From an uncultured Methanosarcinales archaeon (GTDB taxonomy: Archaea; Nanobdellota; Nanobdellia; Woesearchaeales; JABIAG01): DNA of 64,000 bases. Below are positions 8,464-34,860 of this stretch, piece by piece; within the stretch, counting starts at the first letter, position 1, and the number at the start of each line of letters is the position of its first letter. The DNA lies in assembly GCA_964561995.1 (NCBI GenBank), contig CAZLQZ010000003.1, positions 5,056 to 69,055 of the forward strand, in the 5' to 3' direction. The translations under genes were made by a program, and so were the position numbers. Under the pieces are notes generated by a model that saw only the letters and a program-made list of their open reading frames with translations, was not told the DNA's origin and searched no databases.

Positions 8464-9699
8464 TTAAGATTCAACAGTAATTTTGTACCCTTGTGCAGTA
8501 CAGTTTTTAATAAAATCTTCAGTCCCCTTAATATCGTCCCTACTAACTAAAGGATTAGGATAAGTTTCAATTAAATATTTAGCAAAACTATTAATAAAAG
8601 AATTTTCATCCCCCGGTAAATCTAACTCGGTTACTTCCTTAAAATCTGAATATTGAGGATTTTTCACTAAAGAATAAAGCCATTTGTATTCTCTAATATC
8701 AAAAGAAACAGGAGTTCCATCATCATAATAAACAAAATCACGTTTGAATTTTCCAATTATACATTTACAAGCATCACATGGTCCACCACAATCAATATTT
8801 ATTTCACCTTGTGAAATACTCCAAGATTCATCTTCACAATGTGGTACACAAATTCTGTCGCTTCTTCTGCACCCCTCGCCGTCTTGACAGTCATCATCAC
8901 CAATACAACCACACAATTTAGAAGAAGGATTACAGTAATTTGTTATACAATCATAATCACGTTGGCATTTTCTACCTATTGAACAAAATATGGGACATGA
9001 ACCTCCACAATCAATATCGGATTCAGAAGAATCTAAAATGTCATTAGAACACTTAGTAAGAAGGGCAGTCATAGAATTTATTTCAGTTCTTGTTAAACCC
9101 TTAACATCATTATTATTTTCTTTTATTGGAGTTGTTCTTATTACAATGTTTCCGTTTAAGTCAATTTTTTCTATAAGAATGTTAATTAAATCAAAATCAG
9201 TTAACGTTGTATAACTTCCAGAATATCCATAAGGTAAGGAATTTTTAAGTCTTGTTGAACCACTATAACCTTTTCCGTTAAAAATTGTTGGAGAAATGAA
9301 ATAAATATTATTTTCAAGAATTGAAGAACAAGCTAAAATTTTACTTTTTTCTTCAACTAAACAAATACAACCACCAGTTTTACAACCTAAATCTTCATAT
9401 TTTAATTCAATTGGGGAACCGGGTTCAAAAAGATTAGAACTTTTATCGGCATTTATATCAATTGCAATAAGACCATAACCATTTTTAATGTAAAAAGGCA
9501 TTTCTTTAGCAATATACTTTTCTTCAGATTCTAAAAAATATTCTACAGTAGACGTAAATCTTTCATAATTTAACTGTGAAGCCGGATGTATCCCATCTGA
9601 TAAAAAAATACCATAAAGTTTAGCACCAATCATAATAATAATTAATAATGCAATACCTGCAAGAACTAAATGCAAAACTTCACCCATAAATCCTTTCAT
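8464..9699 (-). CDS. Pilin-like Cys-rich protein, 411 aa, carrying two 'DIDCGG' Cys modules
   Basis: N-terminus 'MKGFMGEVLHLVLAGIALLIIIMIG'. Modules 'ESDIDCGGSCPIFCSIGRKCQRDYDCITNYC' and 'EINIDCGGPCDACKC' are related to the modules in 10325..11575 and in the giant protein. Confidence 0.6.
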   Translation of the reverse strand: MKGFMGEVLHLVLAGIALLIIIMIGAKLYGIFLSDGIHPASQLNYERFTSTVEYFLESEEKYIAKEMPFYIKNGYGLIAIDINADKSSNLFEPGSPIELKYEDLGCKTGGCICLVEEKSKILACSSILENNIYFISPTIFNGKGYSGSTRLKNSLPYGYSGSYTTLTDFDLINILIEKIDLNGNIVIRTTPIKENNNDVKGLTRTEINSMTALLTKCSNDILDSSESDIDCGGSCPIFCSIGRKCQRDYDCITNYCNPSSKLCGCIGDDDCQDGEGCRRSDRICVPHCEDESWSISQGEINIDCGGPCDACKCIIGKFKRDFVYYDDGTPVSFDIREYKWLYSLVKNPQYSDFKEVTELDLPGDENSFINSFAKYLIETYPNPLVSRDDIKGTEDFIKNCTAQGYKITVES

Positions 9700-10324: not shown

Positions 10325-11575
10325 TTACTTTGAACACAAATGGTTAGAATCACAATTTGCCGATTTACAATCCAAATTTATTAAACAATTTTCTCCAATT
10401 TCACATTTAAGACGACATGAACCACCACAATCAACATCGGTTTCGTCACCATCTTTTAAACCAGTATTACAAAAAAGATCCAAACAAATTCCTTCTTTAC
10501 CATACATAGTTTCACAAAAATCAGATTCACAATCTAAATCAATTTCGCATCGTTTTCCATTTTCACATTTAAAACAATGACCTCCACAATCAACATCGGT
10601 TTCATCACCATCTTTTGAACCAGTGTTACAATAATTTTTCATACACTTTTTTTCTTTATCATTTGCAGATATTCCACAAATACTAGATTCACAATCCTGA
10701 CCATTTAAACATTTATTATCGTATTCACATTTATTACATCTATCGCCACCACAGTCAACATCAGTTTCGTCAGGATCTTTGTTACCATTATTACAAAGAC
10801 TTTCACGACAAATTCCAGTTTTATCATTAGACATTTCACAAAAATCAGATTCACAATCTAAATCTATTGAACAATTTTTTCCATTTTCACAGCTATCACA
10901 TTCTTCACCACCACAGTCAACATCAGTTTCATCTTCATTAACTTCACCATCAAAACAACGATGTATATCTAAATCATAACCTTTATACTTACAATAAGAA
11001 ATAAAATATTTAATGCCTTTTTCTTCAGATTTTGAATTCATATCAACAGCTATTGTTTTATGTTCACCGTACAATGAATCAATAATTTCATCATAACTTC
11101 CTTCCTTATCATTAAACTTCAAAGTAAGTACATCGCCAGAATAAATATATTGAGTAGTATCACCATATAAATTAAATATTAATTCGTCCAAATAATTAAT
11201 TTTACATGAAGTTTCGCTATCTTTGCCTTCTTGTTCAAGATATATACAACATTTTAAATCATCAGCGATAGACTCTCTAGAATAAGTTATAAAATAATCT
11301 CCTTCAACTTTTGTTAATTTTTTACATTCCGCATTATTTAATACTGTGACTGAATCGTACTTTTTACCAGAACTTTTAACAATATCTAGTTCATTATATT
11401 CGTCTTTAATTTGAGAACAAAACTTTTTTGTTTTATCTTGAATTTCATTAAGACTTGAGCTTTGTTGGGAAAATGATTTGAAAACAATCAATAAAACAAC
11501 CGATGCAACAATAAGTACCATTACCATTATTACGGCTCCATTCATACTCAAACCAAAACCACCTTTCTTGTTCAT
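10325..11575 (-). CDS. Pilin-like protein (416 aa) with a paralogous N-domain plus four tandem six-Cys 'ETDVDCGG' modules; candidate tip adhesin
   Basis: N-terminus 'MNKKGGFGLSMNGAVIMVMVLIVASVVLLIVF'. Its N-domain aligns to the 137-aa protein 11635..12048 ('KFCSQ...ECKKL...LKCCIY' against 'KYCFQ...ECQVL...LLCCLY'). The C-terminal half holds 4 repeats 'NxGxKDxDETDVDCGGxxCxKCE..C....DCxSxxC'. A TATA-like motif lies in the upstream gap. Confidence 0.65.
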   Translation of the reverse strand: MNKKGGFGLSMNGAVIMVMVLIVASVVLLIVFKSFSQQSSSLNEIQDKTKKFCSQIKDEYNELDIVKSSGKKYDSVTVLNNAECKKLTKVEGDYFITYSRESIADDLKCCIYLEQEGKDSETSCKINYLDELIFNLYGDTTQYIYSGDVLTLKFNDKEGSYDEIIDSLYGEHKTIAVDMNSKSEEKGIKYFISYCKYKGYDLDIHRCFDGEVNEDETDVDCGGEECDSCENGKNCSIDLDCESDFCEMSNDKTGICRESLCNNGNKDPDETDVDCGGDRCNKCEYDNKCLNGQDCESSICGISANDKEKKCMKNYCNTGSKDGDETDVDCGGHCFKCENGKRCEIDLDCESDFCETMYGKEGICLDLFCNTGLKDGDETDVDCGGSCRLKCEIGENCLINLDCKSANCDSNHLCSK

Positions 11576-11634: not shown

Positions 11635-12048
11635 TTATTTCCCATCATCTGACCTATATAAACAACAGAGTAAATTATCTTCTTCTACATCTTTTGTTGT
11701 AAATACAGCATAATCAGTTTCTTTTATTCCTTTGTCGTCATCACCAACTTTAACAGAATTTGCTTTTTCTTTAGCTAATACTTGACATTCTGAATCTTTA
11801 AGAACATTAATTGATTGATACCTTATATATTGTTCATCTTCATTTTTTGAAGTTTCATATTTTTTATTTAACTCTTCAACAACTTGAAAACAATACTTAC
11901 TTCTTTTATCCTCAATATTGCCCAAATAACCTGAAAACGATCTCACTCTATTAAATACGGCAGGAATTGTAAAAGCTAATAAGAAAACTAAAACAAGCAT
12001 AATTGCAACCGTTGTAATTGTAAGTGACACGCCTTTATTGTTTATCAT
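11635..12048 (-). CDS. Pilin-like protein, 137 aa (paralogue of the N-domains of 10325..11575 and 12783..13145)
   Basis: N-terminus 'MINNKGVSLTITTVAIMLVLVFLLAF' (KG|V). Confidence 0.6.
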   Translation of the reverse strand: MINNKGVSLTITTVAIMLVLVFLLAFTIPAVFNRVRSFSGYLGNIEDKRSKYCFQVVEELNKKYETSKNEDEQYIRYQSINVLKDSECQVLAKEKANSVKVGDDDKGIKETDYAVFTTKDVEEDNLLCCLYRSDDGK

Positions 12049-12106: not shown

Positions 12107-12406
12107 TTACGTTGTTGCTGGAATACAACAAACTGATTTACCAAAAATACCCTTACTACATTCAACATTATTAGATTTACAAACATTGGCTCCAACATAC
12201 TGAATGTGTGTTTGTTTATTACATGATACACCACATGAAGTACAATCACCGCCTTTACTTTCACAATCACCAATACCAGTAGTAAATCCGCCAGCTTGTT
12301 CTCTAAATATAAAAATCATAATTAATAAAACTATTAAAGCTAAAACAGCTATAACGATAGTAGAAATCGATAATTCAAATCCTTTATTATTTTTGAATAG
12401 TTTCAT
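12107..12406 (-). CDS. Small Cys-rich archaeal pilin, 99 aa (candidate major pilin, copy 1)
   Basis: N-terminus 'MKLFKNNKGFELSISTIVIAVLALIVLLIMIF' is a textbook class III signal (KG|F). It is a tandem paralogue of 12424..12714; both share 'GGF..G..DC.SKGGDC..C....VCCI'. Confidence 0.7.
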   Translation of the reverse strand: MKLFKNNKGFELSISTIVIAVLALIVLLIMIFIFREQAGGFTTGIGDCESKGGDCTSCGVSCNKQTHIQYVGANVCKSNNVECSKGIFGKSVCCIPATT

Positions 12407-12714: not shown

Positions 12715-12732
12715 TATAGACACCTCATGTTA

Positions 12733-17315: not shown

Positions 17316-17815
17316 CTTGTCAATGGTTGAATTTTCGTTGCGTCACCCAAACCTTCCATCTTAACTTCAATTTTACCATACTTAGTTTCATAACAAGTGT
17401 AATTATCGTCGTTAATACTAGTGAAATTTCCAATTTTAACACTTCCTAAATCAAATGCTTCTAAAACAAAACCGCCCTTTCCTAATAAAAATAAATTTTT
17501 GTTTGGAGATTCTCCTTCATAAGCTTGTAAAGCATAAGGCACTAAATTTCTATAAAAACTACAATCACTACAAGAAGTAATAAAACAAACTTGTTCGATT
17601 TTACTAGGAACATTATAAGAAAACACTTCAGAAGTACCCCTTAATCTTCTTACAGAATCTACATCTTCAAATATTTTATTAGTTAATTTAACCAAGGACA
17701 CATCATCAGAAGTTGAAAATATTGCGGCAATTCCTTTAAAAGATATTAAAAACATTAATCCTATTACTAAAGCAATTAAAATAAAAATAAATACTGTTGA
17801 TGTTTGTGCTTTCAT
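17312..17815 (-). CDS. Pilin-like protein (167 aa), translationally coupled to the giant gene
   Basis: N-terminus 'MKAQTSTVFIFILIALVIGLMFLISF' (KA|Q). Its ATG (17813-17815) overlaps the TGA of the giant ORF (17812-17814), forming ATGA. Confidence 0.6.
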   Translation of the reverse strand: MKAQTSTVFIFILIALVIGLMFLISFKGIAAIFSTSDDVSLVKLTNKIFEDVDSVRRLRGTSEVFSYNVPSKIEQVCFITSCSDCSFYRNLVPYALQAYEGESPNKNLFLLGKGGFVLEAFDLGSVKIGNFTSINDDNYTCYETKYGKIEVKMEGLGDATKIQPLTR

Positions 17816-20800
17816 TTTTTAGTCATCCTCTTTAATTTTTTGAATGGTGAAGATCTATTTTTCTTTTCGGGTAGTTGTTTTAAATCTTTAAATACGCCGG
17901 GCCCCGATTTAGGTTTTTCTAATGCTTCTAAATCTTTTTGTAACTTTTTTAATCTTGAAAAGGCATCATCAACATCAGATTTTGGTTTTTTAGTTGACTT
18001 TGCTTTTTTATTTAATTCATCTAAACTTATAAATTTATTACTTTTCTTTTTTCTTTTGGTTCTTTTCTTTTTAGGCTTTGTTTTGGGTTTTATAGGTTTA
18101 GAAATTGTTGATTTTGCTAAAGGTTTGCCACTGATTTTATTTTCAATAGGTTTTGTTTTAGTTAAAGGGGAAAGTTTCTTTTTCAAAGGAGGTAAATTCT
18201 TATTTAAAGATATAACCTTTTTACCCAAAGGAGGTAATTTTTTATTTAAAGGGGGAAGTTTACTCGTTAAAGGGGGCAATTTATTTAATGGTTTTCCAGT
18301 CCTGCCCAAGGGTGGAAAAGAATTTTTTGGTCTAACCCTTGGTGCGGTGGATAGGGAAAGTGGTGGCTTAGCAAAAAATTGCTTATAAGCAAAGAACCCA
18401 CCTACACCTAGAGCTGCCAAAACTAATAAAATTAGTAATAATAAAGGCCAAATTGAACCACCATCAGAAGCATCTAATGGATCTCTTCCAGCAGAAATTT
18501 CATCGCCGTCATTCATATTATCGTCATCACTATCCTCGTTTTTCGGATCAGTATTATATTGACTTTCTTGTAAATTGGTTAGACCATCTTTATCAGGGTC
18601 TAAAAATGCATCTGCGCTATCTCTTGGATCTAAATTAAATCTTATTTCCCAATCATTATCCATACCGTCCCCATCAATATCTTCGTCACACTCATCTCCT
18701 TTTCCATCACCATCTAAATCAGCTTGATTTTCATTAGGAACATTGTCACAGTTATCATTTGAATTCAAGAATCCATCATCATCGGAATCTACATCTTTTT
18801 CAGTACATCTTCCCGAGTCACACAATCCAGATAAACAATCTGCATTTTCAAAACAAACACTTCCTAAAGAACATTGATAGTATGGTAAACAAACTCCGCC
18901 ACAATCTAAATCAGATTCTCCAAAATCTAAATTGCCATTTTCACAAGAGTCCAATTCACAAACACCATTTACTACATCGCAATTCTCAGATTCACAATCT
19001 GAATTCAAATCACATTCTTCATCAATATCACACTTCTTTGAACATGTTCTTCCACAATCTACATCGGTTTCTTTACCATTTTTAATTCCATCACTACAAC
19101 TTGGAGCTAAACATACATTTGAAACGCAATTATCATAAATACAATCACTATCGTTTATACAAACTTTATTGTTGTAACATGAACCACACTGAGGTCCACC
19201 ACAATCTATATCAGTTTCATTACCGTTTTTAATATCATCGTCACATTCGGGAGGAGCTTTAGAATAATCAACAGTAAATTCGTCAGATTCTAAATCATCA
19301 CTTTCTAATCCAACATTATTTACTGCAATAACTTTCAAAACGTATTCAGTATCATTTTCTAAATCATTAACATCAAATCTTCCAGAAGCAATATATAATA
19401 TACCAGATTCAAACTCTACCGTTTCATTAACACACTCTTGCCCTTCTGAAGTCGAGATTTTATCGTCATCTAAGAAATCTTCATCTTCTAAACATTCCTC
19501 AATATCATCAGATTCTGAATCAGTTAATGCAAATTCCAAATAACAATCAAATCTATCATCTTCATCGTCATCAGCACTTCTTAAACAACTAACTAATTTA
19601 TCAACACTTAAATCAACCGAATCTACATCACTATCTATTTCGTCATCTATTGGTTCATCATCCAATTTTTCATAGATTTCCAATTTAAATTTATTTATTC
19701 CTGATTCATTATCATAAGCACTAACAAAATATCTTACTTCTTCATCATAATATGAATATTCTTCATCAACTAGACCCGTAATTTTGACTTGCTTCATTTC
19801 TGGTTCAGTCAAATCAACAATAAAAGAAGATGTTGCAGTTGTTGTATTAAGATTATAAATTCCAAATCTTCTACACATTACATCCAATTGGTAAGAACCA
19901 GTTTCCAAATCAGTAACTGGTCTGTAATGTTCTCTTTGATCAGATATAGTAAGATTGTTTGAAACTGAATTTAATTCAAATTCACAGCTTGCGGGTTTAT
20001 TAGTAGTTACAGCAATTGTTAATGAAGAGTTGCTTAATTTTGCACCATTTACTGGTCTTAAAATAGTTGCTGCAAATTCAGCACCAGGGTCTACTTGAAC
20101 ATCTACTGCACCAGTCCAATTATAACCTGCCTTATCAACACATCTGATTTGTATTGTGTTTACAGTATTATTATTAAGATGCTGTCCAACAACAAATTCT
20201 TGAGATTGTAAACTTTTGTAACTAGTTTCGATATCTTCATCCAAACCAGCAAAGATTTCCCATCCTAAAGAAACATTTCTATAACAAACCATGTTTTTCT
20301 CATCAGTAGTATATGCATACAAAATTCCAGAGTCAGTTGTAACCTTATTCATGTTTAAAGTTACACTCAAAGAATCTATGTCTTTTGTAATTACAAATGT
20401 GGCTGCATGATCAATTCCTTCTGCTTCTCCACCATAATTTTGATCTCTACAGATAACATATAATGGTTGATCAAACAATCCAGTAAATCCAGTTTGGTTA
20501 TGAATTATTTCATTTAATGATGAAAAATCTCTCATTTCAGTGGCATCGAAGTTGGTATCAAAATTAGACCACCTACATTCGGCACTTCTAGAAGTTTCAA
20601 TAACAAAATCTACAGGATCAATTTTAGTGTAACCAAAACTTGGATTAATTAATTTGATTCTAAAATCTTCAATTTCAATTTTAAAATTAAATACTTGTTT
20701 ATTTCCTTTATTTCCATATTGATCAATAGCTTCTATTTCTAAAACATAATCTGCTTCATTTAAATTTTCAAGAACTGAAATTGTAAAATTGTTAGAATTG

Positions 20801-23800
20801 TTATCGGTAATTGAAGTCAATACAATATTATCAGAATCATCTTTAATTACATAATAACTTACATTTACATTTTCTTGATAAATTATTGTCATATTTGGAC
20901 GGAGTTCAGTAAGAATATTTTCTAAAACGTCTGCTGCCGAAAATGGACTTTCGGGTTTGTAACCTTGTTGAATTATATTTACTTCGTCAAGCGAAACAAA
21001 TAAAAATTTATCATCAACATGAATTGCCTGATTCAAAAGTTCTTCTAATTCCTCGGGGTCAGCACTATCAAAAGGAAATGCTTCAATAAATTGATTTACA
21101 TCATTTTCAATGATATTTTGAAATTCTAAAGCTCTTAAATTGGATTTAAAAGACATAATAAGCACTCTTACATCTTCATCCGATTCACTTTTATAAGCTA
21201 AATTTAATGCATTTTCAATTCCAAAATCTTTTGCTTCATCACCTAACCCCACAATATCATACTCTTCATAAGTATAACCAATAATTTCTGAATTGATTTT
21301 GTCAATTAAATCTTTAATTTTACTTGTATAAGATAATTCTACAAATTCAGGTCCATCAGTATCAACCAAGAAATTACCTTTATATGTTCCGACATTGTTT
21401 GATATAACGCCAGTAGCGTTTATTTCATACTCATAATTTCCATCTGACGGAACTGTGAAGCTAAAATTAAATTCTACATAAGTTGCAGAAGCTGCATTTG
21501 CATCATGACTATATCCATCAATAAGTAATTCAGAATCTTTTACTTCTTTATCTGAAAATGCAGCAATTTCAATATCTTTAGAAGTTAAAACATTATCATT
21601 AACTGAATCGATAGTAATAACTGGCAAAGAATCATCAATAGTAAATTCAATTGAATTAGTTGGACCTTTACCACCTAAAATATTTATTAAAGTAATATTT
21701 AAAGTATAAGTTCCATTAGGAATCACTCCGAAATCCGATAAAGAAACTTTACTTAATTCTGAATTGATTTCAATAGTTCCATCGTTACATTTTGAATCAT
21801 CATTGCATAAAACTACATTAGTTTCATTATACACAATAAATTCTGCCTTGTTTACTTCAACTTCAGAATCAAATTTAGCAGAAACCTCAAATAATTTACC
21901 ATATTCCCCGTAATTTTCAGGAACTCTTAATTTGTTATCTAATACAACAGGTAAATTAGTGGTAAAATTAACAACGACACTTGATTGAGCAACATTACCT
22001 ACTTCATCAGCAACCTCCACTGTAATAACATTAATTCCTTTTTGAACTAGTTGAGCAGTTGTTGTATGTTCGCCATCTAAAGCAAATAGTTCTTCAGTTA
22101 AAATGTTATTAATAAATATCTTTGCTGTAACGTCTTCAAAAACTTCATATTTAAGTTCAGGATAAGTATTAGTTAAATACGGTCTTAAATTATCATAAGG
22201 TGTAATTATTCTTGCAGGGTCTACAGTTGTATCAACTTCAAAACTAACTACTTCATAAACGTCCGATATTTTTGGATCAAAAGGAAAACAAGATATTGAA
22301 AAGGGATAAATTCCATCTTTTAAATCAACAATAGAATTAGAAAGGTATGAAAATTGCAATTCATGATTTTTAAGATTATCATTTTCAGATTCCAATCTTA
22401 AAGTAACTTCTCCACTCGAATTAATTAAATATCCACCATCGAAATGAACATCACAAACTGCATCCCAATAAGTTTTAACTAATAATTTAGGTGTTGCATC
22501 TGCGGTTTTACCATTAGGTTTAATACTAACAATTTGTAATTCTAAATCAGTATCTACTGTTAAATTAACTTCTTGTTCAACGAAATTACCTGCACGGTCT
22601 AAACAATTAACAAAATAAGTATAATTACCATCCCCCACTCTGAACTCATCAGTTGAAAAAGTTGTTCCAAAGTCTTGTCCTAAAGAAGTGTAAACTGCTT
22701 CATCTTTTTCTTTATATTTACATTTAATTTCATCAAGAGAACTAACAGTTAAACGAGTTTTATTAATTTCATACAGCAAGTAATCATTAACTTCAACTTT
22801 AAATGCATTTTCAAATTCTGAACTAAAAACAGGTTCATTAAAATCAACAACAAGTTCTAATTGTGTTGTTTTATTATTACCAAATAAATCTTTACATGAT
22901 ACATCTAAACTATTACTTCCTTCAATTAGTTCTTCAACCATAGTATGATTAAATATAGTATCATTTTCTTTATTCATTGACATTTTATCATTATCAAAGT
23001 AAGAGACATAACATTCAGTACTTGGTTCGTGAGTTATGATTTTAAATGTAGCAAGGAGTTTATTTGTATATCCAGGATTTATATTTTGAGGGAAAAATAA
23101 TACTTTTGGGCCGTCTTTATCGGTAATCATGTTAATCAAATAGGATTTATCATTTCCTACATCATCTTGAATTGTAACATAAAGTACGTTTGATGTTTCA
23201 GCATTTTCCTCTTCTTCTAAAGTAACACCATTAATATCAAATTCAACATCATTACCACGTATAATTACATCATAACTGTCATCAGTATTGTCTAAGTAAG
23301 AAGATAAAATTATAGATGCATCAGTATCATCTTTATTATATCGCCCAAAGATATTAACTAATGAAGAATTTGTTCTAAATGCATAATCGTGAGTTTGTGA
23401 ATCTGCAGTCATAATTACACCATCATTACCAGTAACATCAATAAATGTGATTTCGGGAGTTGAATTGTCCACAAATATCGACCTATTAAATGAGTCTGAA
23501 ACTCTTCTTGAAGAATCATTTGCATAAATCTCAATTATGTGTTGTCCAGGCTCAAGATTAAATTCAATATCGTCGTCTTCGCCAAATTTGTAAATGCCAA
23601 AACCCTCACTATCTGTTTGAATATATTCTGCTATTTTTGTTGTAAATAATAAATTGTCAACTAAAACAGACAATGTTTTGATTCCATCACTTCCAACAGA
23701 ATAATCTTTTAATCTTCCCTTTAAACTAATTTTTTGATATTTTGATCTGATGTTATCCATGCTTTGGGTACTATCATAAACATCAGAAACTACAATGCTA

Positions 23801-26800
23801 TTTTTTACCAAAGGTACATCTGCATCCAATTTAAGACTGTATATTTCAGGAGTAGAATTGTCTACAAAGAATGAATAAGTGGAAGGAATTTCTGAATCAA
23901 CAAATAATATTTCTCTTACTGAGATTAAAATTTCACAATGTGAACATTTCCATTCTTCTTTAGGTGTTAAATTAAATAATCTTTTACCATCTCCAGTATC
24001 TGCAATAGTAATATTGACAATGAAATCATCTTGATTCATTAAAACTTCATCACCGCCATATTCTCTTACTTCGATAGGAGTTTTTATTGCATCTGTAAAT
24101 CCTAATTCTAAATCACTATCTTTTTTATCTTCAGCATCATTAAACTTAACAAACAAAGACTCTTTATCACTTTGAGTATATTCTGGTGCAAAAGTCCAAT
24201 CTGTATCATCACCTAAACTCCAACCAACAACACCGGGCATGCTTGTATCAAAACCAAAAGCTAATTTAAAAGGAGTTGGGAAAGGACTAAGTAAGAATTG
24301 GTCTTTTTCATTAACAGATGCTTTATTTCCAAAATCATCTTCTACACTATAATATATAAAATATATTGAATCTTCCCATCTTGAAGGACTTTCTAAGTCT
24401 AATGCATAGAATTGGAAAGTTGCTTCTGTTAAAGATTCAGCATTAGGATTTATTTCCCAAGTTTCATTTTCTTCTACAGTTGGACTCCAAGTATATTTGT
24501 AAAGTATAAATGTTCCATTATTAATTCCTGCATTATCTTTAAATGTTAAAGTAAATGGGTCATCAACATTACTTAAATATTGATTATGTTCATTAATTAT
24601 TGAATCATATAAAGGGCGACTTTGCATTTTTAATATTGAAGGGCCTTTCCAATCATTAATAAAAATAATTGTTTCTGAAGAAATGGAATTACCTGCTAAA
24701 TCTGTAACATTGAAAATAAAAGTTTTATTTACTTCTAAATTTTCAAGTTTTTCAATATTAAAACTATAATATAAAGAATCATTTATTTCTGATTTTCTTT
24801 CGTAGGTATTGTCATGGTCTTTTTCATTTAAAGTAATTAATGAAAATTCATTTACGCTAATGTTTATTTCTAGTTCAAAATTGTCTGGAACATGATAATA
24901 ATAAAGTATGCTTCCGCTTCTTTCTATTGGTTGACCGGGATATTCGGGATGAAATTCAGAATAAGTTGTTGGTACTATTTCTTCAATTTCTGGATCAATA
25001 GTGTCTAATGTAATGTTTAAAACAAAAGGATTTTCCATTTCATTATCTAAATCATCTTTAGCAATAAGTGTGATTTCTTCTAGGTCCCCTTCTTCTAATT
25101 CTAAATTTAATGTGATATTGTATGACAAATTCTTTCCAACTTGAACAAAAGATTCATGCTGTAATGGAAGATTTATTTCTGAATCAAAATAAGTTAATTT
25201 TACGTCGCTTAATTCATCAAGATTTTCAGCAATGTCGATTTGTAAACACATCAAACCACTTTCTTGAGTGTAATAAGAATTGCCAAGTCTACTGATTTCA
25301 GTTAATGGTGAACCACAACTTCCCAAACTTAAAATCATATCGTTGACAATTGGAGGTTGGTCATCTAAAGTTAAATTAACTCCATCAATTGGAACTCCGC
25401 AATCATTCGAAGTAAAACATTCATAATTTTTGGAATCAGTTAATTTTCCCGAACATTCAATATTAATTGTATTAACAACATTTTCAAAGAAATCATTTTT
25501 ATCTAAAGATGCTTTGTAAACGCCACCAGATTCAAATAATTCTTTTGCTCTTCCAACTATAGGTACGTTATCTTGATAAGATAATGTTTTTCTAGATTTG
25601 GTTATTCCAGTTTGGGAATTTTTAACAATATAAGAACACTTAATTGGATCTTGATCTTCGGAATATTTCCCACCAGGAACATTTGTTCCAATAATCAAAT
25701 CATAATTATCAAAATTTGGAACCCTTGAATTGTTTTCAGGTTGAATAAATGAAAAATTAAGTTTCGGATTAGATTGATAATTAAAACTTCCTTGAATTGT
25801 ATTTTCTTTACCATAATAATTTTTACAAATGATTGTTAAATCTGCATTATAATTTTTACCAACTTCTAAATCATTAGCAATTTCTTCAGACATAGAAACT
25901 TTTTTAGGTACAACTAAATCAAATAATTTATCTTCATAAGTTACTATATTTTTGCTTGGATTGTTTTGTGTAAAATTATAATTACATTTAACTTTTATAT
26001 TTTCTTGAGTATAAACTTCCATAGTAAAAGTTTCAGTCAAAAAGGACTGAGTTGTAATTATGGGAGAGAGTTCTAAGGGACTTTTTAATGTATAATCATC
26101 ATTATTAAGATATAATGGCCTAAATTCATAAATTTCATTTTCAAGTTCATCAACACAAGTAAAATGTAAATATTGCTGAGTTGCTAATGACAAAAATTCA
26201 ATTGAATGATTATAACCAAAAACATTATCATCTTCATTTGATGCTTGATTTCCAGAATTAGCCGGTTTTTCATTAGTATATTGATTACTAACCCAACACT
26301 TAGCAGGCTCATTTGTTTTAAAATAAATTTCAACATTGTCATTAATAGTATAATAACCCGGACCAAAATAATCATTACTTATTTCTGTATCAAAGTGATA
26401 ATAAGATTCTTTTCCTTCGGTAAAACTATTAGAATGCTCAATAACTGGACCAGCATTATCAATATTCATTTTTGCAAAAGAAAAACCAACATTATTTGCT
26501 AAATCGTTTGCTTGACATACAACAACTATCCTATTTTCTTTACCTGAATCTGGCAATTCAATATCATCTGTTGAAATATCAAAAGCATCAGAATAATCAT
26601 TAACTCCATTATTCATATAGGGTGTCCAATTATAAGAATAGTTGTTATAATTAACTTCTGACACATCTTCAAAAATTTTGTATATTATATTTTGACAATC
26701 TGTATCATCACTACATTCACAACTAAAGTTTGCAATTATGCCGTCACCAATCCATTTGAATTTAAGAGGTGCTAAAGTATCATTTAATTTTGCATCAATT

Positions 26801-29800
26801 ACAGGTTCAACATTATCAATAATAACTTCAAAATCTTTAGTAATTACATTAGTTGATTTATCTTCCATCATTAATTGTAACATTATTTTTTCATAAGAAT
26901 AAAGAGTTGTATCAAACTTAAATCTAATTTGGGGACTTTTTATTTTTCCAGGAGTTAGTAATTTTGGCGAATCTATTTCTTCACTGTAATAATAAAAATC
27001 AATCTTTTCTTCTGCAAAAGGGAGAGTATCATTTGTTACATTAATTCTGTATGCTCCATAATTATAACCTGCGTGATTTCTAATATCTAAAAAATCAACA
27101 TCTAAACTTAAAATGGGTTTATTATTTCCAATAACTAAACTTTCATCTTCGCCTTCAATAGACTTGATTTGGGGGTTTTCATCATCAGTATGAACAATTG
27201 CATAATGTTCATATTGCTGCCCTTCATCTCCAGAATCACGATTTACATAAATTGAAGAAATATTAATCAAATAATCCTTTCCATTTTCTAACAAATTACC
27301 AGATTTAAAAGAAACATTATATTTGTTTAAACCTTCATAAGTTTCAGGTACATCAAATACTTGTATTTGTGCTTTTTTAATTGTATCTCCACTTATTGCA
27401 GTTACGTTTCTTAATGAAATATTAAACTTGTTATTAGTAGTATATAATTCAATTGTAAAACTAGTTTCGCAATTGGCATTAAGATAAAAGTGTTCAATAT
27501 AAGGCATATCCTTATACTCTTCGGGTTCATACAAATTGTCAACTTTTCTTCCAGAATCTAAAAGATTCATTTCAATATCAAAAGCACAAGGGTCATAATA
27601 AATAGTGTTTAAATAACTTCCAGTTTGAGAATTTCCCACTTTATCTTTTGCTTCAACATTTATATCAAAAGAAACTCTATTTTCAGTTGTTTCATCACAT
27701 TCAAAGAAATCAAAAAAATCAACATTTTCATCAGTTAACAATTCACTATTAATACCTATATTAAATATGTTACCTTGAGAATTTTTAACAACATAATCTA
27801 ATGACAGTTCTTGAATATAGCCATAATCATTCAAAACGTATTTTAGGTCTGAATCAAAACCAGTAATTGTTAAAAAAATTTTACCTTTTGAAATGGTAAC
27901 TTTAATTGAAGATTTGTTTAATGAATCTACTCCAGAAAATTGTTCAACTAATGTTATACCAATTCCTCTTTCTAATGTTGAATATGCATTATCTAAAGGT
28001 ACAACATTTACTTGCGGACCAATTAAATCAACAAAAAACTCTTTTTGTTCAGTATGATAATTAGCTACATCATCATACAACTTAAAATCATAAACATACC
28101 TTCCCCTTTCATCAAAATCATCAGATTCATTACTAAAAGTAAACAATCCGGGATAGTTATCATAATTATAAAAATTAAATATTTCAGTGTCATTAGTTAA
28201 GAAAACATCAACTGCATCAATTAAAGTAATATGATAATACAATCCAGAAGAACCGTCACATTCACCATTTTCTGCAGAGAAAGAAGCAGGAAGGTCATAT
28301 CCATAAAGTTTTAAGTTTATAGGACCATTAACTGCAATATATTTGTTTTCATAAGTTCGTATTGCTTCTTTATCATTTTCATCAATTAAATCATTAGGAA
28401 TACACAAAAGCAAATTATCGTTTTTTGTTTGTTTCAATATCTTTCTATCTGAAATAGAAAATTCCATTTCTTCATCTAAAGCATAATTAACAATTAAATT
28501 TTCTAAAAAAATAATTTCATTTTTATCTGAAGCAATAACTTCTACAGTGTCATCAGCTGAAACGCCAACAAAATTAATTGTTTGTCCTGAACCATAAAAT
28601 TGTCCATCTGCCGGACTATTCCAATCAATACTTGAAGGGGCAGTCGTATCTAATTTAAAATTAATATCGAAATCAGCAGATAATTGAGAATTTACACTTT
28701 TAACATCAAACAATCTTAAGGTTTTTTCATTACCTGACTCATCTTCTTTAAAGATTTTTAATTCATAAAGTTTAGAATTTTCTCCAGCTTCATTAAGTAA
28801 AAAATTATAATTTTTATCAAATCCATTCAAGATTCCTGCATTTCTAAAAATAGTTTCAACATTTTCGTCAAAAGTTAGATTTATTAAAAATGCATCATGT
28901 AAATCATCTGAATCATAATCACCATAACCTATTTTGTAAGTATCAGTTTGCGAATTATATTGACAATTAGGTTTTATTTCACAATCTATAAAAGTATAGT
29001 TCAATAATACTGCTGGCGTTGAATCATTTACTGAAACATTAAATTTAATTGTATCATTACATACTCCTGCAGCATCACACAATTTTATAAACATAGAATA
29101 ATTTCCAAAAACTAAGAAATCGTAATCATCTTGAGTTAAGTTACCTTCAAAAGTATTTTCATCAATTAAATCTAATTCAAAATCTTTTACATTACTTCCG
29201 TCTTTTACAAATTTAATACTGCTAAAGTTAACCAATTGAGTATATTTTGGATCTGCACCTTTAACAACAAAAGTATAGTTTTGTTTTTTATCTAATGTGA
29301 AATTCTCTTTATTATATGGTAAAACAAATCCATCATCAATTTTAGTAATTGTTATGGGATTTTGTGATTCTGTTTTTTCAATTAATACTGGAGGAATAAA
29401 ATCAACAAAATAAACAGACAAATCAGAACTGGTTTCTTGATTCAAATGGTCTATGGCGTATACCGTTACTAAATTCATACCATGATTTAATTTTATTTTC
29501 CCATTGTAAGTATATTCAGTAGGGAAGTCATTATTAGTTGACAATTCAGTAATAAATACATTACTATCTAAAACCCATTCGGTAGATTCAAAATCGGATT
29601 CTGACTCATAATTTTTAACTTCTACTAAAGCTGCCTTCATACCTTTATCTTCAGAAATAATTACCTCAGCATCAATATTGATTATTTCTAAAGGAACACT
29701 AAGATAAATAGAAAGTTCTTCACTATTTTTTTTTAGTGTTGTACTTTGAATTTCTGGTGCACCCGAATCTAAATTAGATGAAAAATCAAATAATACCTTA

Positions 29801-32800
29801 TTTAAGTTTGAAATACCATCTTGTGCACTTACTTTAACTAGGCCATCGACACTTTCTAAACTAAATACTCCATTATAAGAAGTTGAAGTTGGAGGAATTG
29901 AATCAGAATAAGTAAAAATTTGACAAACATCCAATCCTGCTTCATAAGGATAATTGCTTACATCTGCCAAAGTGATTTTTGAAATTATTTTTTGAGAATA
30001 TAATGGTGCCTTTAATTTATCACCACAATTATTTAAATCGTTAATTTTAAATTCATAATCTTTTTTACCATCAATTGTAAAATTTTCAAACACAAAATTA
30101 GCATACTCATCAACAACCATATTCTCTGAATTAATCAAAATCGATTTATCAATTAATAATCCATTTTCATAAGCTTCAATTGAATAATCGCAACTTGATG
30201 AAGGTTTACTAGCAATCATTAAATCAAAAGAGTGCACTAAATATTCATTATCAAAACTAAGAGTAACATTAATTTCTAGATTAGATGTTGTTATTCCAGA
30301 AGGAATATTATCTATTTTTGCAATTTCATTTCCTGCCAAATGTAATGATTGTCTTGTATCTTTACATTCTAATTTAATTTGAGAAGAAGAAGAAAATGCC
30401 ACATTACTTGTTTTTCTTAAAAATCCATAACTGTCAGTATCTCCATCATTAAAATCATTAAATTCTTCATCATTAATTTCAATTACAATTTCAGGAGAAA
30501 AAGCATCAATAACTAATGTAAAACTTTCATTATCAGAAATAGTCTCACCATTAATTGTTTTTGAACAATTATAATCAACTTGATAAACGCCATTTGGATT
30601 ATCGCCCAAAAGGTCTCCATAATCTATAAAATCACTTTTTAAACAAAAATATCCCTCTTCAAAATATGTATCACTACAACCAGAATCAACATTAACAACT
30701 TCATATTGTTGTGAAGTAAAACCATTTCTAAATGTATAACTACATTCGCTTGGTTCAAATGAAAAACTAGTTGTATAGGATAATAATTTAAAATCTGATC
30801 CTTTTGTTCTTATTCCTGTATCTAAATAATTATGAACTTCATCATCTAAAGAAACTGCCTTAAATAAAGATTTCTCAATTATTGGGTCTTTATCAACTAA
30901 AAAATGGCGTGTTGCAATATCAATGTTACCAGTAACATCCAAGCATCTTAATTTTAAAATATATTCGCCATCTTTTAATCCGGGCACAGAAATTTCCGCT
31001 ATGTCCCCTTCAGAAACTTCAATTCCATCTCTTAAATAATCACTATAAATTAAATAATTAAAACTCTCATCGTACAATTTTTCAAAAGTTTCAGTACAAC
31101 CTCCTCTTGCAGAAGTACTTACCTTATATTGCACATTAAGAGTCATTCCTTGTGCATCTTCATCTAAACTTTGTTCTAAAATATTAATTAATGGAGGAGA
31201 AGTATCAATAGGAAATGATAACTCTTTAACTTTTTCTTTATTAAAATTTTGATCTTCAGTAAAATATCTTACAAACCTTGTTCCAGAAGGAATAGGTAAA
31301 TCACCATCATAAAAATAAGACCTATACTTTTGATTTTCTATTTCAATTGGATCTAAACTAATGGTGGGGTCTAAAGCATAAATAAAATTTTGATTTGACC
31401 AATCATTATCTAAAATGTGTCTATCATAAGTACAATCATTTAGCTCATCTTCTCCAAAACAATAATATAAAATAAAATTAGCCAAATAATATTCATCTAA
31501 ATATTCATCCTGGTCATCAACTTGAATTGTGAATTTCACTTCACTTTCAGACATAAAAGTTGAAGTTTTAAGTTGATCATTTGCAGAAGTACTTTTCTTA
31601 ACTATTTGAACAGAAGTTCTAGGGGGATTTAAATCCTGTTCACATTCAATAAATATTGAATCAAATTGCGGTGAAGGATCTGTTAAAGCACGTCCATAAC
31701 TTCCTTCAATATTATCACAACTACTCTTTCTACAAAATTCTTCAGTCGGAATTTTATCACCATAAAGTGCATCATTTTCAAATCTTCTATCGCTCACATC
31801 CCAATTACAAGCTTCAAAACCACATGAATTATAATATTCAACAGAATCAGCATCCACAAAACCATTACAATCTTCAGCTTCAAAAATCATACATCCTTTT
31901 TTCAAATTAATAATATCTTCACAATCAGAACAAACACTGACTTCATCAGAATCTAATTTTCCACAAGATTCATTATGACCTATTGCTGAACAAACATCTT
32001 TATTACAGCCAGAAAGCAGATCAATTTTATCACATTCAGAACATAAATTTTCATTTTCATCTTTTGAAACACAAATTCCTTCTCCTAAATTAGTTGTTTC
32101 TGGAATAGAAACCCAACTACATCCTGTTTCTTCAGAGCTTTGCAATCCTAAATTACAATGGTCTATTTCACAAGCATATTGAGATTTATATCCTAAACAA
32201 CTATCAATTCTAAGACAACTTCCACAAGAATCGGTTACCCTATTATCAATTGAAGTTATAGAATTTTCATCATCAAGAACATATCTTGAATAATCCAAAT
32301 AACAATAATTAGGATTAGTTGAACTACCTTCACACGTTTTAGCATTGTTTGTTTCCCATGAATAAGTTTTAAAATTGAGTAATCCAAAAAAGTTTGAAAC
32401 TCCAAACAAGTTTCCTGTATAAGAAGTACCAAAAGAACTACATTCATCAGCTTCAACACAATTTGCATTTGGTTTACCATTTTCGTATGAATTTAAACAA
32501 TAAAGGTCATAAGGATCAGAAGGACAATCATTCAATCCCAAAACTTTCAATCCTCCCAAATATTCAAATAAAAACTCACTTCCAAGTTCATAACTTAAAG
32601 TGGATCTACTTTGATCATTACAACTGTATTTTGTTTTTGAATTTAAAGAAGGAATACAAAAATTATCATTCAAAGATAAACCATCACAAATTTTATCGCC
32701 AGAAAATTTGACACTTGTATTTTTAATACCATTACATCCACCAACAGTAACATCATCAGAAATACCACAATTTCCTACTCCTTTTATAATTAATTCATAA

Positions 32801-34860
32801 ATATAATAACTATCGTATTCAGTAGAATCATCAATAAAAGTAAAAGCTTCTAAATTTTTATGAAGTCCAGATTGTGATCCTGAACCTTGAAAATCATCTT
32901 CTTCAAACAAAAATATTTCGTCAATTTCAAATTTATCGTCCAACTTACTATTTATGTTGAATTTCTTTCTAATTATTTCAACTTCAGCAATTTTATCAGC
33001 ACACAAATCATTAATCCAATTAATTGCTAAACTGGGTTTATTATATGCATAATTTAATACATCATAATTATTAGTAGGGAATTCAGGATTAAAATCACTT
33101 GCAACATTACAAAGATGAGCTTCGGGTTCTGGAACAATTAAATTGCCAACATCAGCTTGGGACCCAGCATAATAGGTATTTATTGTCTCATCGGGTTCAG
33201 CATAAACATATTGAACTGCATTAGGATTATATATTAATTCGATTTCTAAATTTCTTGAAATGCTAAAAAATTTAATTTTCATTTCATTAGTAAAAGTATC
33301 AGGAAAAACTGGCAAAGCCAAACTAAACTTTCCGGGATTGGAATTAGATTCTGTTCCTGTTGTAATATATTCATCACTTTCAAGCGGCTTTCTAAAAAGA
33401 AATATATCATTTTTATCATAAACTTTAACATAAATTGGTGTATTTTCTAAAGCTGGATAAGTATCTTTTGGTTCTCCATTAATTTCTTCAACAATTTTAC
33501 CAAAAATAATTTTTGGTACTCCACCATCACAAGGAATATTTGAAAATTCAAAACTGTTTGAACTTCCACAACAAAATTGTCTTTCATATTCATCATAATT
33601 AATAAAGAAACCATCGGTTTGATTACCACAAAAACAATCATCAGTTGATACTTCGGAACCAAAAGTACAAGATTTAACATCATCAACTTTCAAATTACAA
33701 CAAACTTCACTTCCATCTTGACAAACAAGTCTGGTTTCATTTTCTCCACTTATACCTTCACATGTTGCTTTAGACATACAATGTCCGCCATTAATATGAT
33801 AATCATCACATTTGTCAACGCAAGTACCTAATTTACATCTAGCATTAGCATCACAATCGGTGTCTGCAATACATTCTGCATCATAACTACTTTTTTCTAA
33901 AGTAACTGTTTGTGAATAATCTTCATTAGAAGTATAAACTGCAGAATAAGTTTGATAACCAGATTTATAAAATTGAATTCCAACTTGAGTACTTGAAAGA
34001 ATTTGAATTGTTACTTCTCCGTCAGAATCAGTAATTCCAGAATCAGTACAACCAGAAATACAATTAACGGCAACATCATCTAATAATTCATCATCACTTT
34101 TATTTTGAACAGTAAATTCTACATCAACATAACTCAACTGAGAAGGTGTTAAACTTATTTGAATTGTTTCGTCTGAATCAGTTACAGTAATAGTTTGTTC
34201 TAAAGGTAAAAAACCTATAGCATCAAAAGTAAATCTATAACTTCCCTTGGGATGAGATATTTTAAGTAGGGCCAAATTATTATTTTCGTCATCATCACTT
34301 TGATCTTGCCAAGTACCAAAAACTGAAGAAGCAATACCATTAGAAGAAGTGATTTTTGAACCATCGTTTTTATTTAAAAATTTAAAAGTAATTGGTTCTT
34401 CAGGGATTTGATTACCGCATTGATAAAAATCATCAGATTCAAAAAAAACAGTATTTAAATAATCTGCAATTTGAGAAGATTTATTTTCACATTCAATTTT
34501 GGAAACTAATTCAATTACTTGTTCTTGGCCGCCATCAGTAGTAGTATAATAACAACAACCTTCTTGACACTGACCGCCAAGCGTAGGACTCGAACAAGCA
34601 GTTAATCTAAAAAAATTAGAACCAGAACAATCACTCCACGAACGATAAGTACAATAATCTTCACCCTGATCTAAAGGAATTAAACAACACCCATTATTAT
34701 CACAAGAACCTACTTCAGATGTATAGCCAGAACATGAAATTTCATCATCATCAACACATTGGCCGTCAATAATACAAACATCGGCAAATACTGGAAATAA
34801 GATAGTTAAGAATAAAACTAAAAATACCACTAAACCTAGCACTATCCCTCTTTTTTGCAT
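17812..34860 (-). CDS. Giant (5,682 aa) Cys-rich, beta-rich surface protein: N-terminal signal, C-terminal six-Cys modules, thrombospondin-type-3-like Ca-binding repeats, a single TM helix and a ~190-aa Pro/Lys-rich cytoplasmic tail; putative adhesin
   Basis: Uninterrupted 17-kb ORF. N-terminus '[29 protein letters not shown]' is either a Sec signal or a class-III-like signal. C-terminus: '...[46 protein letters not shown]...' (DxDxDG repeats), then TM '[23 protein letters not shown]', then '[22 protein letters not shown]...[12 protein letters not shown]'. GGTGA SD and TATA lie in the 89-nt upstream gap. Confidence 0.8.
   Translation of the reverse strand: [5682 protein letters not shown]
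18150..18330. repeat. Tandem ~33-36-nt DNA repeats encoding the '(N)KLPPL(xK)' repeats of the giant protein's cytoplasmic tail
   Basis: The + strand shows 'aaaggaggtaaattcttatttaaag / aaaggaggtaattttttatttaaag / ggggaagtttactcgttaaag / ggggcaatttatttaatgg'. The antisense ORF 17804..18388 in the track is an artefact of this region. Confidence 0.6.

Follow-up and report, generated by a model that had tools for sequence, protein, structure and literature searches.

The repeated Cys-rich stretch carried by three proteins in the window (the whole 64,000-nucleotide stretch of archaeal DNA analysed here) is a genuine, independently folding extracellular domain of about 50 residues. In tandem, the modules probably represent an autonomous eight-Cys domain that serves as a putatively Ca2+-stabilised spacer or stalk in surface proteins. 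The initial annotation had described a six-Cys unit of about 40 residues; the unit in fact holds eight Cys in 45–51 residues and is built of two four-Cys halves, following C-x13-C-x3/4-C-x2/3(5)-C-x5-C-x5-C-x4-C-x4-10-C in the window copies. The Cys preceding "N-x-G" and the Cys following "G-x-C" both lie inside this unit, and in each array the first copy begins at C1 and the last closes at C8. Half A reads C-x-[DN]-G-x-x-[ND]-G-x-E-[TS]-D-[VI]-D-C-G-G-x(1-2)-C-x(2-3)-C and half B reads G-x-x-C-x4-D-C-x-S-x-x-C-x(4-10)-C. The two can stand apart: half A is found on its own 97 times, isolated copies of half B are seen as well, and one of the window proteins has both kinds.

All three carriers are encoded on the minus strand, where every peptide quoted in the initial annotation was found. 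The first, P1, is a 416-residue pilin-like protein (10325..11575, delimited by its ORF and translation) whose C-terminal half holds the four tandem copies attributed to it, each of them a full module (aa 207–414). These are module 1 (aa 207–256; 10808..10957), with Cys spacings 13,4,2,5,5,4,9 and a score of 44.9 bits against an external profile hidden Markov model (HMM); module 2 (aa 261–311; 10643..10795; 13,4,2,5,5,4,10; 39.6 bits); module 3 (aa 316–364; 10484..10630; 13,3,2,5,5,4,9; 42.7 bits); and module 4 (aa 369–414; 10334..10471; 13,3,3,5,5,4,5; 47.2 bits), whose C8 is only 2 residues from the stop codon. The second, P2, is a 411-residue ORF product (8464..9699) with an N-terminal "MKG" and a hydrophobic segment. 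Two copies had been assigned to it, one of which is full (aa 217–263; 8911..9051; 13,3,3,5,5,4,6; 38.7 bits), while the other, "CEDESWSISQGEINIDCGGPCDACKC" (8761..8838), is a first half only (C1–C4), matched by the external HMM over positions 2–26 only at 9.1 bits (i-E 0.062). P2 additionally shows an isolated four-Cys hairpin resembling half B, "CIGDDDCQDGEGCRRSDRIC" (8848..8907), seen in the sequence and not significant against the external HMM. The third carrier, a giant surface protein of 5,682 residues (17812..34860), opens with a signal or anchor at its N-terminus and has a single C-terminal transmembrane (TM) helix. The copies placed just outside its membrane, put at three or more in the initial annotation, are three full modules preceding that helix: module 1 (aa 5206–5250; 19111..19245; 46.9 bits), which has an orthologous module in another archaeal locus, L028; module 2 (aa 5255–5301; 18958..19098; 39.5 bits), in which DCGR replaces DCGG; and module 3 (aa 5306–5352; 18805..18945, calculated from protein positions; 39.5 bits), with a C3–C4 spacing of 5. 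The copy number is thus four in P1, three in the giant protein, and one full copy plus separated half-copies in P2.

The external HMM comprises 120 copies, all from other organisms, and scores each of the eight full window copies at 38.7–47.2 bits (i-E 1e-11 to 1e-14), bearing out the earlier proposal of a conserved, disulfide-type module common to the three proteins. The spacing 13/3-4/2-3/5/5/4/4-10 is exact in seven of the eight, the exception being giant-protein module 3, and all window spacings (13, 3–4, 2–3 or the exceptional 5, 5, 5, 4, 4–10) fall inside the range of 681 eight-Cys copies taken from the top database matches. The carriers are rich in Cys and Asp, and the module is without any Pfam or NCBIfam match, as one might expect if there were no underlying domain and the similarity came from chance or from a composition rich in Cys, Asp and Gly. 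This explanation, to which we give practically no credence, is already refuted by the Cys spacing, which is fixed over the 681 copies measured, by the near-invariance of the same positions in 3,044 copies, and by external HMM scores of 39–47 bits per copy, with no further copy detected in any of the six frames of the window; the AlphaFold2 (AF2) pLDDT of 92 argues in the same direction. The initial annotation had named bias without conserved spacing as the outcome that would undo its proposal, and the conserved spacing is clearly the opposite result.

Beyond the Cys, conservation over the 3,044 copies is greatest in the acidic lead-in, the most conserved non-Cys segment, which makes the putative Ca-binding role earlier proposed for it reasonable to infer. 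E12 is found in 100%, D16 in 99%, D5 or N5 in 99%, N9 or D9 in 93% and D14 in 77% of these copies, and E12, D16, G18, G19 and D36 are 94–100% conserved; the same five positions (E12, D16, G18-G19 and D36) are kept in all eight full window copies, apart from a G19-to-R change in giant-protein module 2. A cluster of D5, N9, E12, D14 and D16, perhaps joined by D36, would probably hold Ca2+ in place of a hydrophobic core. The Cys themselves are lost in a patterned manner: C3 is absent only where the canonical C1 is absent (13 clean cases and 8 in which the sole nearby Cys is off-register), and C5 and C7 are lost jointly three times. The most likely disulfide pairs, judged from this co-loss and from the Cys spacing that half B shares with LEAP-2, would be C1–C3, C2–C4, C5–C7 and C6–C8. 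One might suppose instead that the acidic and Cys residues bind metal as their main function, either buffering or storing Ca2+ or capturing transition metals at the cell surface. E12, D16 and D36 are near-invariant, the modules co-occur with thrombospondin-type-3-like (TSP3-like) repeats of a Ca-binding type, and in the Micrarchaeota protein L045 they accompany another Cys- and Asp-rich repeat, "ETCNGxDDDCNG". We nevertheless hold such a role to be improbable, as the eight conserved Cys are even in number and their paired co-loss indicates disulfides and not free thiol ligands, and as the putative Ca sites, one to every 50 residues, are spaced in the way typical of structural sites, for instance those of LDL-receptor class A (LDL-A) and Ca-binding EGF (cbEGF) modules.

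The resemblance to cbEGF, LDL-A and Lin-12/Notch repeats (LNR) extends to the overall size of ~40–50 residues, three or four disulfides with little hydrophobic core, a conserved acidic cluster, and the use of successive copies as rigid spacers within large surface proteins; the position of the module ahead of TSP3-type repeats is shared with thrombospondins. The module differs from these repeats in the number and spacing of its Cys and in that its Ca site is putative. Pfam models for EGF-like, cbEGF, LDL-A and LNR domains gave no match to the window proteins (E≤1) or to bacterial members (E≤10), the nearest match of this kind being FOLN at E=2.6. The Myxococcus cysteine-rich repeat (TIGR02232 / Pfam DUF4215), a tandem "C-G-[DN]-G-x-x-x-x-G-E-x-C-D-x-G-N" motif, is abundant in Myxococcota surface proteins. 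We take it to resemble the module in that its E lies at a similar distance from the initial Cys. Its core "G-E-E-C-D-D-G-N" differs from the module core "E-T-D-V-D-C-G-G"; the TIGR02232/DUF4215 models matched nothing in Pfam and NCBIfam scans of the window proteins or of Myxococcota members.

The initial annotation had asked whether the module takes a knottin- or EGF-like disulfide fold. AF2 models a single module (P1 module 3) with a pLDDT of 92.4 and a pTM of 0.70; its knottin neighbours in Foldseek are non-significant, and no EGF model in Pfam matches. Foldseek places knottins and colipase (the latter at E=1.7–2.9) nearest to it, all non-significant, with a best E of 1.5 and probabilities of 0.18–0.38. 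Knottins share the size and Cys density of the module, with a query-normalised TM-score of 0.34–0.40 over 22–38 aligned columns, but have six Cys where the module has eight, and their matches reach only E≥1.5 and probability ≤0.28; their disulfides are knotted 1–4, 2–5, 3–6, whereas the co-loss in the module suggests C1–C3 and C5–C7 pairs. Sequence-profile searches of the PDB, run with profiles of 8 and of 128 copies, returned weak half-B matches only: half B, as "G-x-x-C-x4-D-C-x-S-G-x-C-x4-C", aligns with segments of the DKK1 Cys-rich domains (E=5–7), with Brugia Bm4233 (6any; E=0.016) and with LEAP-2 (2l1q; E=0.059), which has the same C-x5-C-x4-C-x4-C spacing. These alignments cover ~25 residues at E=0.016–6.6 and are not significant for family membership. 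Half A is without a counterpart in the 10-Cys Dickkopf/colipase domain, and no match spans that whole domain. Half B probably folds as a beta-hairpin stapled by disulfides, in the manner of Dickkopf or LEAP-2.

These neighbours might suggest that each module is a bioactive unit of knottin or colipase type, such as a protease inhibitor, toxin or antimicrobial peptide, exposed at the surface or released from it, given that the top Foldseek hits are knottins (PAFP-S, atracotoxin, maurocalcin, SOTI-III) and colipase, and that half B is like the antimicrobial peptide LEAP-2. Yet every structural match is non-significant, the Cys co-loss favours 1–3 pairing over a cystine knot, and the modules sit within long arrays joined by linkers of 3–4 residues with no obvious processing sites, making this a very improbable account.

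The module family is common to several domains of life and is not special to this gene cluster. It comprises at least 13,610 clusters at 50% identity (E≤1e-3), mainly from Myxococcota, and also from DPANN and other archaea, unclassified bacteria and a rotifer, and a single protein can hold up to 39 matched stretches. When the three window proteins and bacterial members were scanned against Pfam and NCBIfam, the module was assigned to no family, and a full-text literature search with DVDCGG-type motif strings and with DPANN, Woesearchaeota and Cys-rich topics retrieved nothing relevant. Bacterial members are signal-peptide proteins with long module arrays followed by unrelated domains, among them fibrinogen_C, TSP_C, Gal_lectin, FGE-sulfatase, pentraxin and F5/8C; in archaeal ORFs, the modules lie 1–123 residues ahead of a C-terminal TM helix and charged tail in 9–10 of 13 cases.

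These placements, with bacterial arrays set between the signal peptide and other domains and archaeal copies directly before the membrane anchor, favour a spacer or stalk over a ligand-binding head, and so speak against the earlier view that the pilin-like proteins carry ligand-binding heads. The best reading of the module is a disulfide-locked spacer or stalk, probably Ca-stabilised, rather than a specific head; each copy would be a rigid, protease-resistant spacer, with 3–4-residue linkers between copies. The competing view, in which the modules are adhesive or ligand-binding heads for a host glycan or protein, and P1 and P2 are pilus tip adhesins acting with the giant protein, is rather unlikely in our judgement, if by no means negligible. 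In P1 the modules lie farthest out and run to the C-terminus, an arrangement that would also suit a binding tip; L045 likewise joins a pilin-type N-terminus to modules; some Cys-rich domains as small as this one are lectins, and the lectin scytovirin gave a weak match (E=3.8); and all three carriers lie within one 34-kb co-directional cluster of surface-protein genes. Against this, the surface-exposed, non-structural positions are highly variable, and what is conserved (Cys, Gly and acidic residues) is scaffold-like; most family members are long arrays beside dedicated binding domains; in archaeal giant proteins the modules are nearest the membrane and not at the tip; and pilin–module fusions are few.

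The stalk arrangement is clearest in the giant protein. Between its modules and the membrane lies an acidic TSP3-like stretch with DxDxDG...C motifs (18457..18801), for which the Pfam TSP_3 match is below threshold (E=0.01; 15.9 bits; cut-off 25) and which is kept in four other loci (L028, L053, L059 and L064). It is followed by the TM helix (18382..18450, from a hydropathy scan), about 119 residues past the last module, and by a basic cytoplasmic tail read from the sequence (17815..18381), with KLPPL repeats and a terminal "DDAFsRLkKL" motif that also occurs in L028. The C-terminal 1,000 residues are collinear with an ORF of L028 (E=7e-142), and this alignment brings each of the three modules into register, together with the TSP3-like region, TM helix and tail. 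The three modules and the acidic repeats would form a membrane-proximal stalk, raising an ectodomain of ~5,200 residues off the cell.

P1 runs from a basic N-terminal segment with "KKG" through a hydrophobic helix and an orphan middle region to the four tandem modules; AF2 predicts a helix at residues 11–60, low confidence over residues 52–201 and pLDDT 85–98 over the modules. Its residues 6–118 are homologous to an entire neighbouring protein, a 137-residue pilin-like paralogue without modules (11635..12048, minus strand; BLASTP E=4e-12). The N-terminal half of P1 as a lone query returned no homologues, nor P1 itself. The label "pilin-like" rests on the N-terminal motifs, the predicted 50-residue N-terminal helix and the presence of a type IV prepilin-peptidase-like gene (Peptidase_A24; 50516..51460, plus strand; Pfam PF01478, E=9.5e-8, 32.9 bits, cut-off 26.5), and it is to be set against the lack of any pilin model at a meaningful score: for P1 and P2, Pfam gave no pilin family and the best NCBIfam match was ComGC (E=0.098; 12.9 bits; cut-off 75), and Pfam found no pilin family in ten small neighbouring proteins. 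P1 ("MNKKG" followed, after the predicted cleavage, by GFGLSMNGAVIMVMVLIVASVVLLIVF) and P2 ("MKG" followed by FMGEVLHLVLAGIALLIIIMIG) share basic residues, a [KR]G motif and a hydrophobic helix, recognised by motif only; some 12 neighbours have the same short basic N-terminus, [KR]-G and hydrophobic helix of ~20 residues. In this N-terminal motif, in the predicted P1 helix and in the nearby A24 peptidase, they are like archaeal type IV pilins with class III signal peptides; the C-terminal Cys-rich array of P1 is unusual for pilins. No T2SSE-type assembly ATPase or platform gene was found among the window ORFs scanned, so that a filament built from P1 and P2 is at most putative.

The P1 copies are mutually closest relatives, at 60–69% identity, which points to an origin of the array by internal duplication. 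The event would not be recent, given a mean column identity of ~75% in the DNA alignment; Tandem Repeats Finder did not detect the array in the DNA. The four duplicated modules would lengthen a small pilin-like subunit, and P2 would have one full copy and separated half-copies in its C-terminal half, followed by a module-free tail of ~100 residues. Comparable fusions are rare: L045, found by eye, fuses a pilin-type N-terminus (QSAMEFLMTYGWAIL) to two modules and TSP3 repeats, and is the one further case in 80 loci, with none in 257 other proteins; a regular expression for class-III-like N-termini returned no fusions in these proteins and loci and missed L045.

The initial annotation had also taken the shared module to link the giant protein functionally to the pilin-like proteins. 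That argument is weakened by the very large size of the family: the common module argues only weakly for any specific functional tie between its carriers, because the family of at least 13,610 clusters is combined with many unrelated domains, and because the giant-protein and P2 copies are no closer to those of P1 than to bacterial copies (50–59%). Recent exchange of modules among P1, P2 and the giant protein was considered and rejected on this same relationship.

On a broader and distinctly tentative view, the modules may belong to an undescribed superfamily of Ca2+-stabilised eight-Cys domains, at least 13,600 clusters strong and without a curated model, structure or literature, spread over Myxococcota, other bacteria, DPANN and other archaea and some eukaryotes. 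In DPANN archaea, modules, TSP3-like repeats, TM helix and basic tail might then make up a conserved cassette that anchors giant surface proteins, with modules also grafted onto minor pilins, as the structural core of an apparatus by which episymbionts reach and hold their hosts. If truly uncurated, the family would rank among the larger extracellular domain families without model, name or structure, and a definition of it would supply annotations for surface proteins now labelled "hypothetical", tens of thousands of them, above all in Myxococcota and DPANN archaea. The cassette would offer a recognisable signature of giant host-facing proteins in DPANN, and the module, small and modelled with confidence, could be expressed to raise antibodies or to study its structure. 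By itself it says nothing of the binding partners of the giant or pilin-like proteins. The window comes from a DPANN archaeon of the Woesearchaeota or Nanoarchaeota type: it also encodes a cysteine desulfurase, whose named relatives are from Woesearchaeota or Nanoarchaeota (56–66% identity), and an archaeal RPA.

The initial annotation described a six-cysteine module of ~40 residues shared by two pilin-like proteins, here P1 (416 aa; 10325-11575, minus strand) and P2 (411 aa; 8464-9699, minus strand), and by a giant 5,682-aa surface protein (17812-34860, minus strand). The three minus-strand ORFs and all the peptides quoted for them were confirmed, and a six-frame motif scan of the window for the 'D-C-G-G/R' core gave nine matches in coding frames, all inside these proteins, together with one unrelated chance match at 41494. 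The shared module is thus real, but larger than described: alignment of the window copies yields a unit of 45-51 residues with eight cysteines (C1-C8), which runs from a Cys 13 residues ahead of 'DCGG' to the Cys following 'G-x-C'. This phase is set by the arrays of P1 and the giant protein, because in both the first copy opens with C1 and the last closes with C8. The earlier counts of four copies in P1 (aa 207-414) and three in the giant protein (aa 5206-5352) hold; of the two assigned to P2, one is full (aa 217-263) and the second comprises the first half only (aa 288-313), with an isolated hairpin like the module's second half lying between them (aa 265-284).

Cysteine spacing, measured on 735 full copies from the top 120 matches of a protein search with P1, is nearly fixed: among the 681 copies with exactly eight Cys, C1-C2 is 13 in 672, C4-C5 is 5 in 677, C5-C6 is 5 in 671 and C6-C7 is 4 in 655. 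Several residues between the cysteines are highly conserved across 3,044 copies from 258 proteins (E12 100%, D16 99%, G18 99%, D5/N5 99%, D36 95%, G19 94%, N9/D9 93%; module numbering). Against an HMM built from 120 foreign copies only, each full window copy (eight in all) scored 38.7-47.2 bits and the half copy 9.1 bits; the window translated in six frames gave no further match. Spacing, residue conservation and external HMM scores together exclude chance as well as a mere Cys/Asp bias without conserved spacing.

The initial annotation had asked whether the module forms a knottin- or EGF-like disulfide fold. AlphaFold2, run on the third P1 copy with an alignment of 128 module sequences, gave a confident model (mean pLDDT 92.4, pTM 0.70) that shows short beta-bridges and a single helical turn at 'D-x-D-C'; when P1 was modelled in full, its four modules all reached pLDDT 85-98, and residues 52-201 were not confident. 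Foldseek against the PDB returned knottins and colipase as top entries (TM-scores of 0.37-0.52, normalised to the query), with no match below E=1.5. Sequence-profile searches with the module against PDB chains matched only its second half (Brugia Bm4233, E=0.016; LEAP-2, E=0.059; scytovirin, E=3.8; DKK1, E about 5), and the C-x5-C-x4-C-x4-C spacing of LEAP-2 is identical to that of this half. The halves (A, C1-C4; B, C5-C8) can exist apart from each other: among the sampled proteins half A stands alone 97 times, solitary copies of half B are also found, and P2 has both types. C3 is missing only where the canonical C1 is missing (13 clean cases, and eight more in which the sole nearby Cys is off-register), and C5 and C7 are jointly lost three times. 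Because of this co-loss in natural variants and the four Cys in each autonomous half, we infer that the disulfides pair 1-3, 2-4, 5-7 and 6-8.

The family is large. P1 as query recovered more than 4,143 proteins, with matches confined essentially to its C-terminal half. Among 1.84 billion cluster representatives, a profile built on the window copies matched 13,610 proteins at E<=1e-3 (5,803 at E<=1e-10; 1,476 at E<=1e-30), and as many as 39 matched stretches occur in one protein. GTDB species representatives contain at least 542 confirmed stretches, the best 80 of which are mostly from Myxococcota (including Polyangia, Nannocystis, Enhygromyxa and Sorangium) and also from Woesearchaeota, Nanoarchaeia, Micrarchaeota, Altiarchaeales and contigs labelled Methanosarcinales. 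Beyond these, the protein search with P1 reached an unclassified bacterium, an Anaerolineales bacterium and the bdelloid rotifer Adineta ricciae, whose partial 623-aa protein P0023 consists of 12 tandem copies and could reflect horizontal transfer or contamination. Neither Pfam-A (2025 copy) nor NCBIfam 20.0 contains a family for the module, as judged from the window proteins and Myxococcota members; precomputed Pfam annotation of the P1-search matches covers partner domains only, and full-text literature searches for the motif strings returned nothing relevant. By analogy, the module may resemble cbEGF, LDL-A and LNR-type modules in function; it failed every test run for membership in those families, as well as those run for Dickkopf/colipase and the Myxococcus Cys-rich repeat, and knottin membership is unsupported. 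The family is thus apparently undescribed, within the well-known class of small disulfide-rich extracellular repeats; it is mechanistically unsurprising, and merits a curated model and a structure.

How the modules are placed bears on what they do. Of 13 archaeal ORFs taken from GTDB genomes, 9-10 carry two to five modules at a distance of 1-123 residues upstream of a C-terminal TM helix, which is followed by a charged tail of 100-200 residues; an acidic thrombospondin-type-3 (TSP3)-like stretch often intervenes between modules and helix, and the module holds the EGF position in a thrombospondin-like layout. Bacterial members begin with a signal or lipoprotein N-terminus and continue with long arrays and unrelated C-terminal domains (among them fibrinogen_C, TSP_C, Gal_lectin, FGE-sulfatase, pentraxin, LamG and F5/8C); a TM segment downstream of the modules occurs in only five of 258 proteins. 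A Woesearchaeota ORF open at its 3' end (L033, 193-6126) has at least 23 tandem modules, and therefore long arrays are not restricted to bacteria.

On balance we favour a structural unit, locked by disulfides and probably stabilised by Ca2+, with copies joined through linkers of three to four residues into what would be rigid, protease-resistant rods. Such modules would form a stalk adjoining the membrane in the giant protein and a distal extension of the pilin-like subunit in P1; in P2 the full copy and separated half-copies occupy the C-terminal half, before a module-free tail of ~100 residues, and both pilin-like proteins may be incorporated into filaments. The data establish that the domain is real and conserved, where it is placed and that it combines promiscuously with other domains; the disulfide map, binding of Ca, rigidity and uptake of P1 and P2 into filaments are inferences. 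The initial annotation saw adhesin or ligand-binding heads instead, a reading that the C-terminal position of the modules in P1 allows but that the family-wide pattern disfavours; it is the main rival, though we regard it as unlikely. Knottin-like bioactivity and a primary role in metal capture are minor alternatives to the structural role.

The giant-protein type itself has relatives. L028 aligns with the giant protein over its C-terminal 1,000 residues (E=7e-142, 33% identity), with three modules, TSP3-like region, TM helix and a terminal 'DDAFxRLxKL' motif in register; because L028 keeps all three modules, the juxtamembrane set is long established in this type and has been conserved vertically. 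For giant surface proteins of DPANN, the module can serve as a useful marker. The giant protein's cytoplasmic tail (17815-18381, minus strand) is very basic, includes 'KLPPL(N/G/T)KK' heptad-like repeats encoded by a DNA tandem repeat (18156-18287, period 21/42), and carries at its extreme C-terminus a 'DDAFsRLkKLqKdL' motif, kept in the L028 orthologue. Five module-bearing loci (L028, L064, L008, L015 and L047) lie on contigs labelled 'uncultured Methanosarcinales archaeon'; either the giant-protein type occurs outside DPANN too or the contigs have been mis-binned. Pilin-type fusions are rare, with one further case in Micrarchaeota (L045, 529-2304): a classic archaeal pilin N-terminus 'QSAMEFLMTYGWAIL', a Thr/Pro linker, two modules, three TSP3 repeats and three 'ETCNGxDDDCNGxxDD' repeats, a toolkit paralleling that of the window's proteins.

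Module sharing had also been read as a functional link among the three proteins, which the copies bear out only weakly at the sequence level. P1's four copies are mutual nearest relatives (60-69% identity; about 75% mean column identity in a DNA alignment), consistent with internal duplication, and tandem-repeat detection on DNA did not pick up the array; copies of the giant protein and P2 are as far from those of P1 as from bacterial ones (50-59%). Co-location makes the stronger argument: 20 consecutive minus-strand genes (3993-37863), the giant protein included, each encode a product with a single N-terminal hydrophobic segment, often preceded by a [KR]G motif and with Pfam matches nearly absent, and look like one large surface-apparatus cluster.

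Within this cluster, P1 resembles a small pilin-like subunit to which an orphan region and four modules have been appended, because its residues 1-118 are homologous to a whole adjacent 137-aa protein (E=4e-12) and residues 11-60 are predicted to form an N-terminal helix. The label 'pilin-like' is still based on motifs, and Pfam and NCBIfam pilin models gave no meaningful score for P1, P2 or the neighbouring small proteins scanned. A word-indexed protein search with P1 aa 1-206 found no match and missed P1 itself (P0001, present in the database), so negatives of this search with fragment queries call for caution. Among the window ORFs scanned there was no pilus assembly ATPase or platform gene; a Peptidase_A24 (type IV prepilin-peptidase-like) gene (50516-51460, plus strand; Pfam 32.9 bits) is encoded some 13 kb away from the cluster, on the other strand. 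The 166-aa protein between P1 and P2 (9764-10264, minus strand), with an N-terminal hydrophobic segment and 14 Cys, has no module copy and may be another disulfide-rich surface protein. Next to each other lie two 99-aa pilin-like paralogues (12107-12406 and 12424-12723, minus strand; 42% identity, E=2e-10), both with a small globular part rich in Cys ('DCxSKGGDC...CCI') that has no relation to the module.

Elsewhere in the window, large ORFs of 1,390 aa (42960-47132, plus strand), 1,289 aa (52532-56401, minus strand) and 607 aa (56380-58203, minus strand) have no Pfam match or a weak Ig-like (Big_7) one only. The window as a whole is archaeal and of DPANN type, as seen from an encoded RPA with a DUF2240 match, a cysteine desulfurase whose named relatives (56-66% identity) are all from Woesearchaeota or Nanoarchaeota, and a GC content of about 28%. 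A 981-aa fusion of two radical-SAM stretches, SPASM and a C-terminal peptidase U32 domain (38228-41173, plus strand) marks a switch in gene orientation and GC skew, where local GC is about 23-24%.
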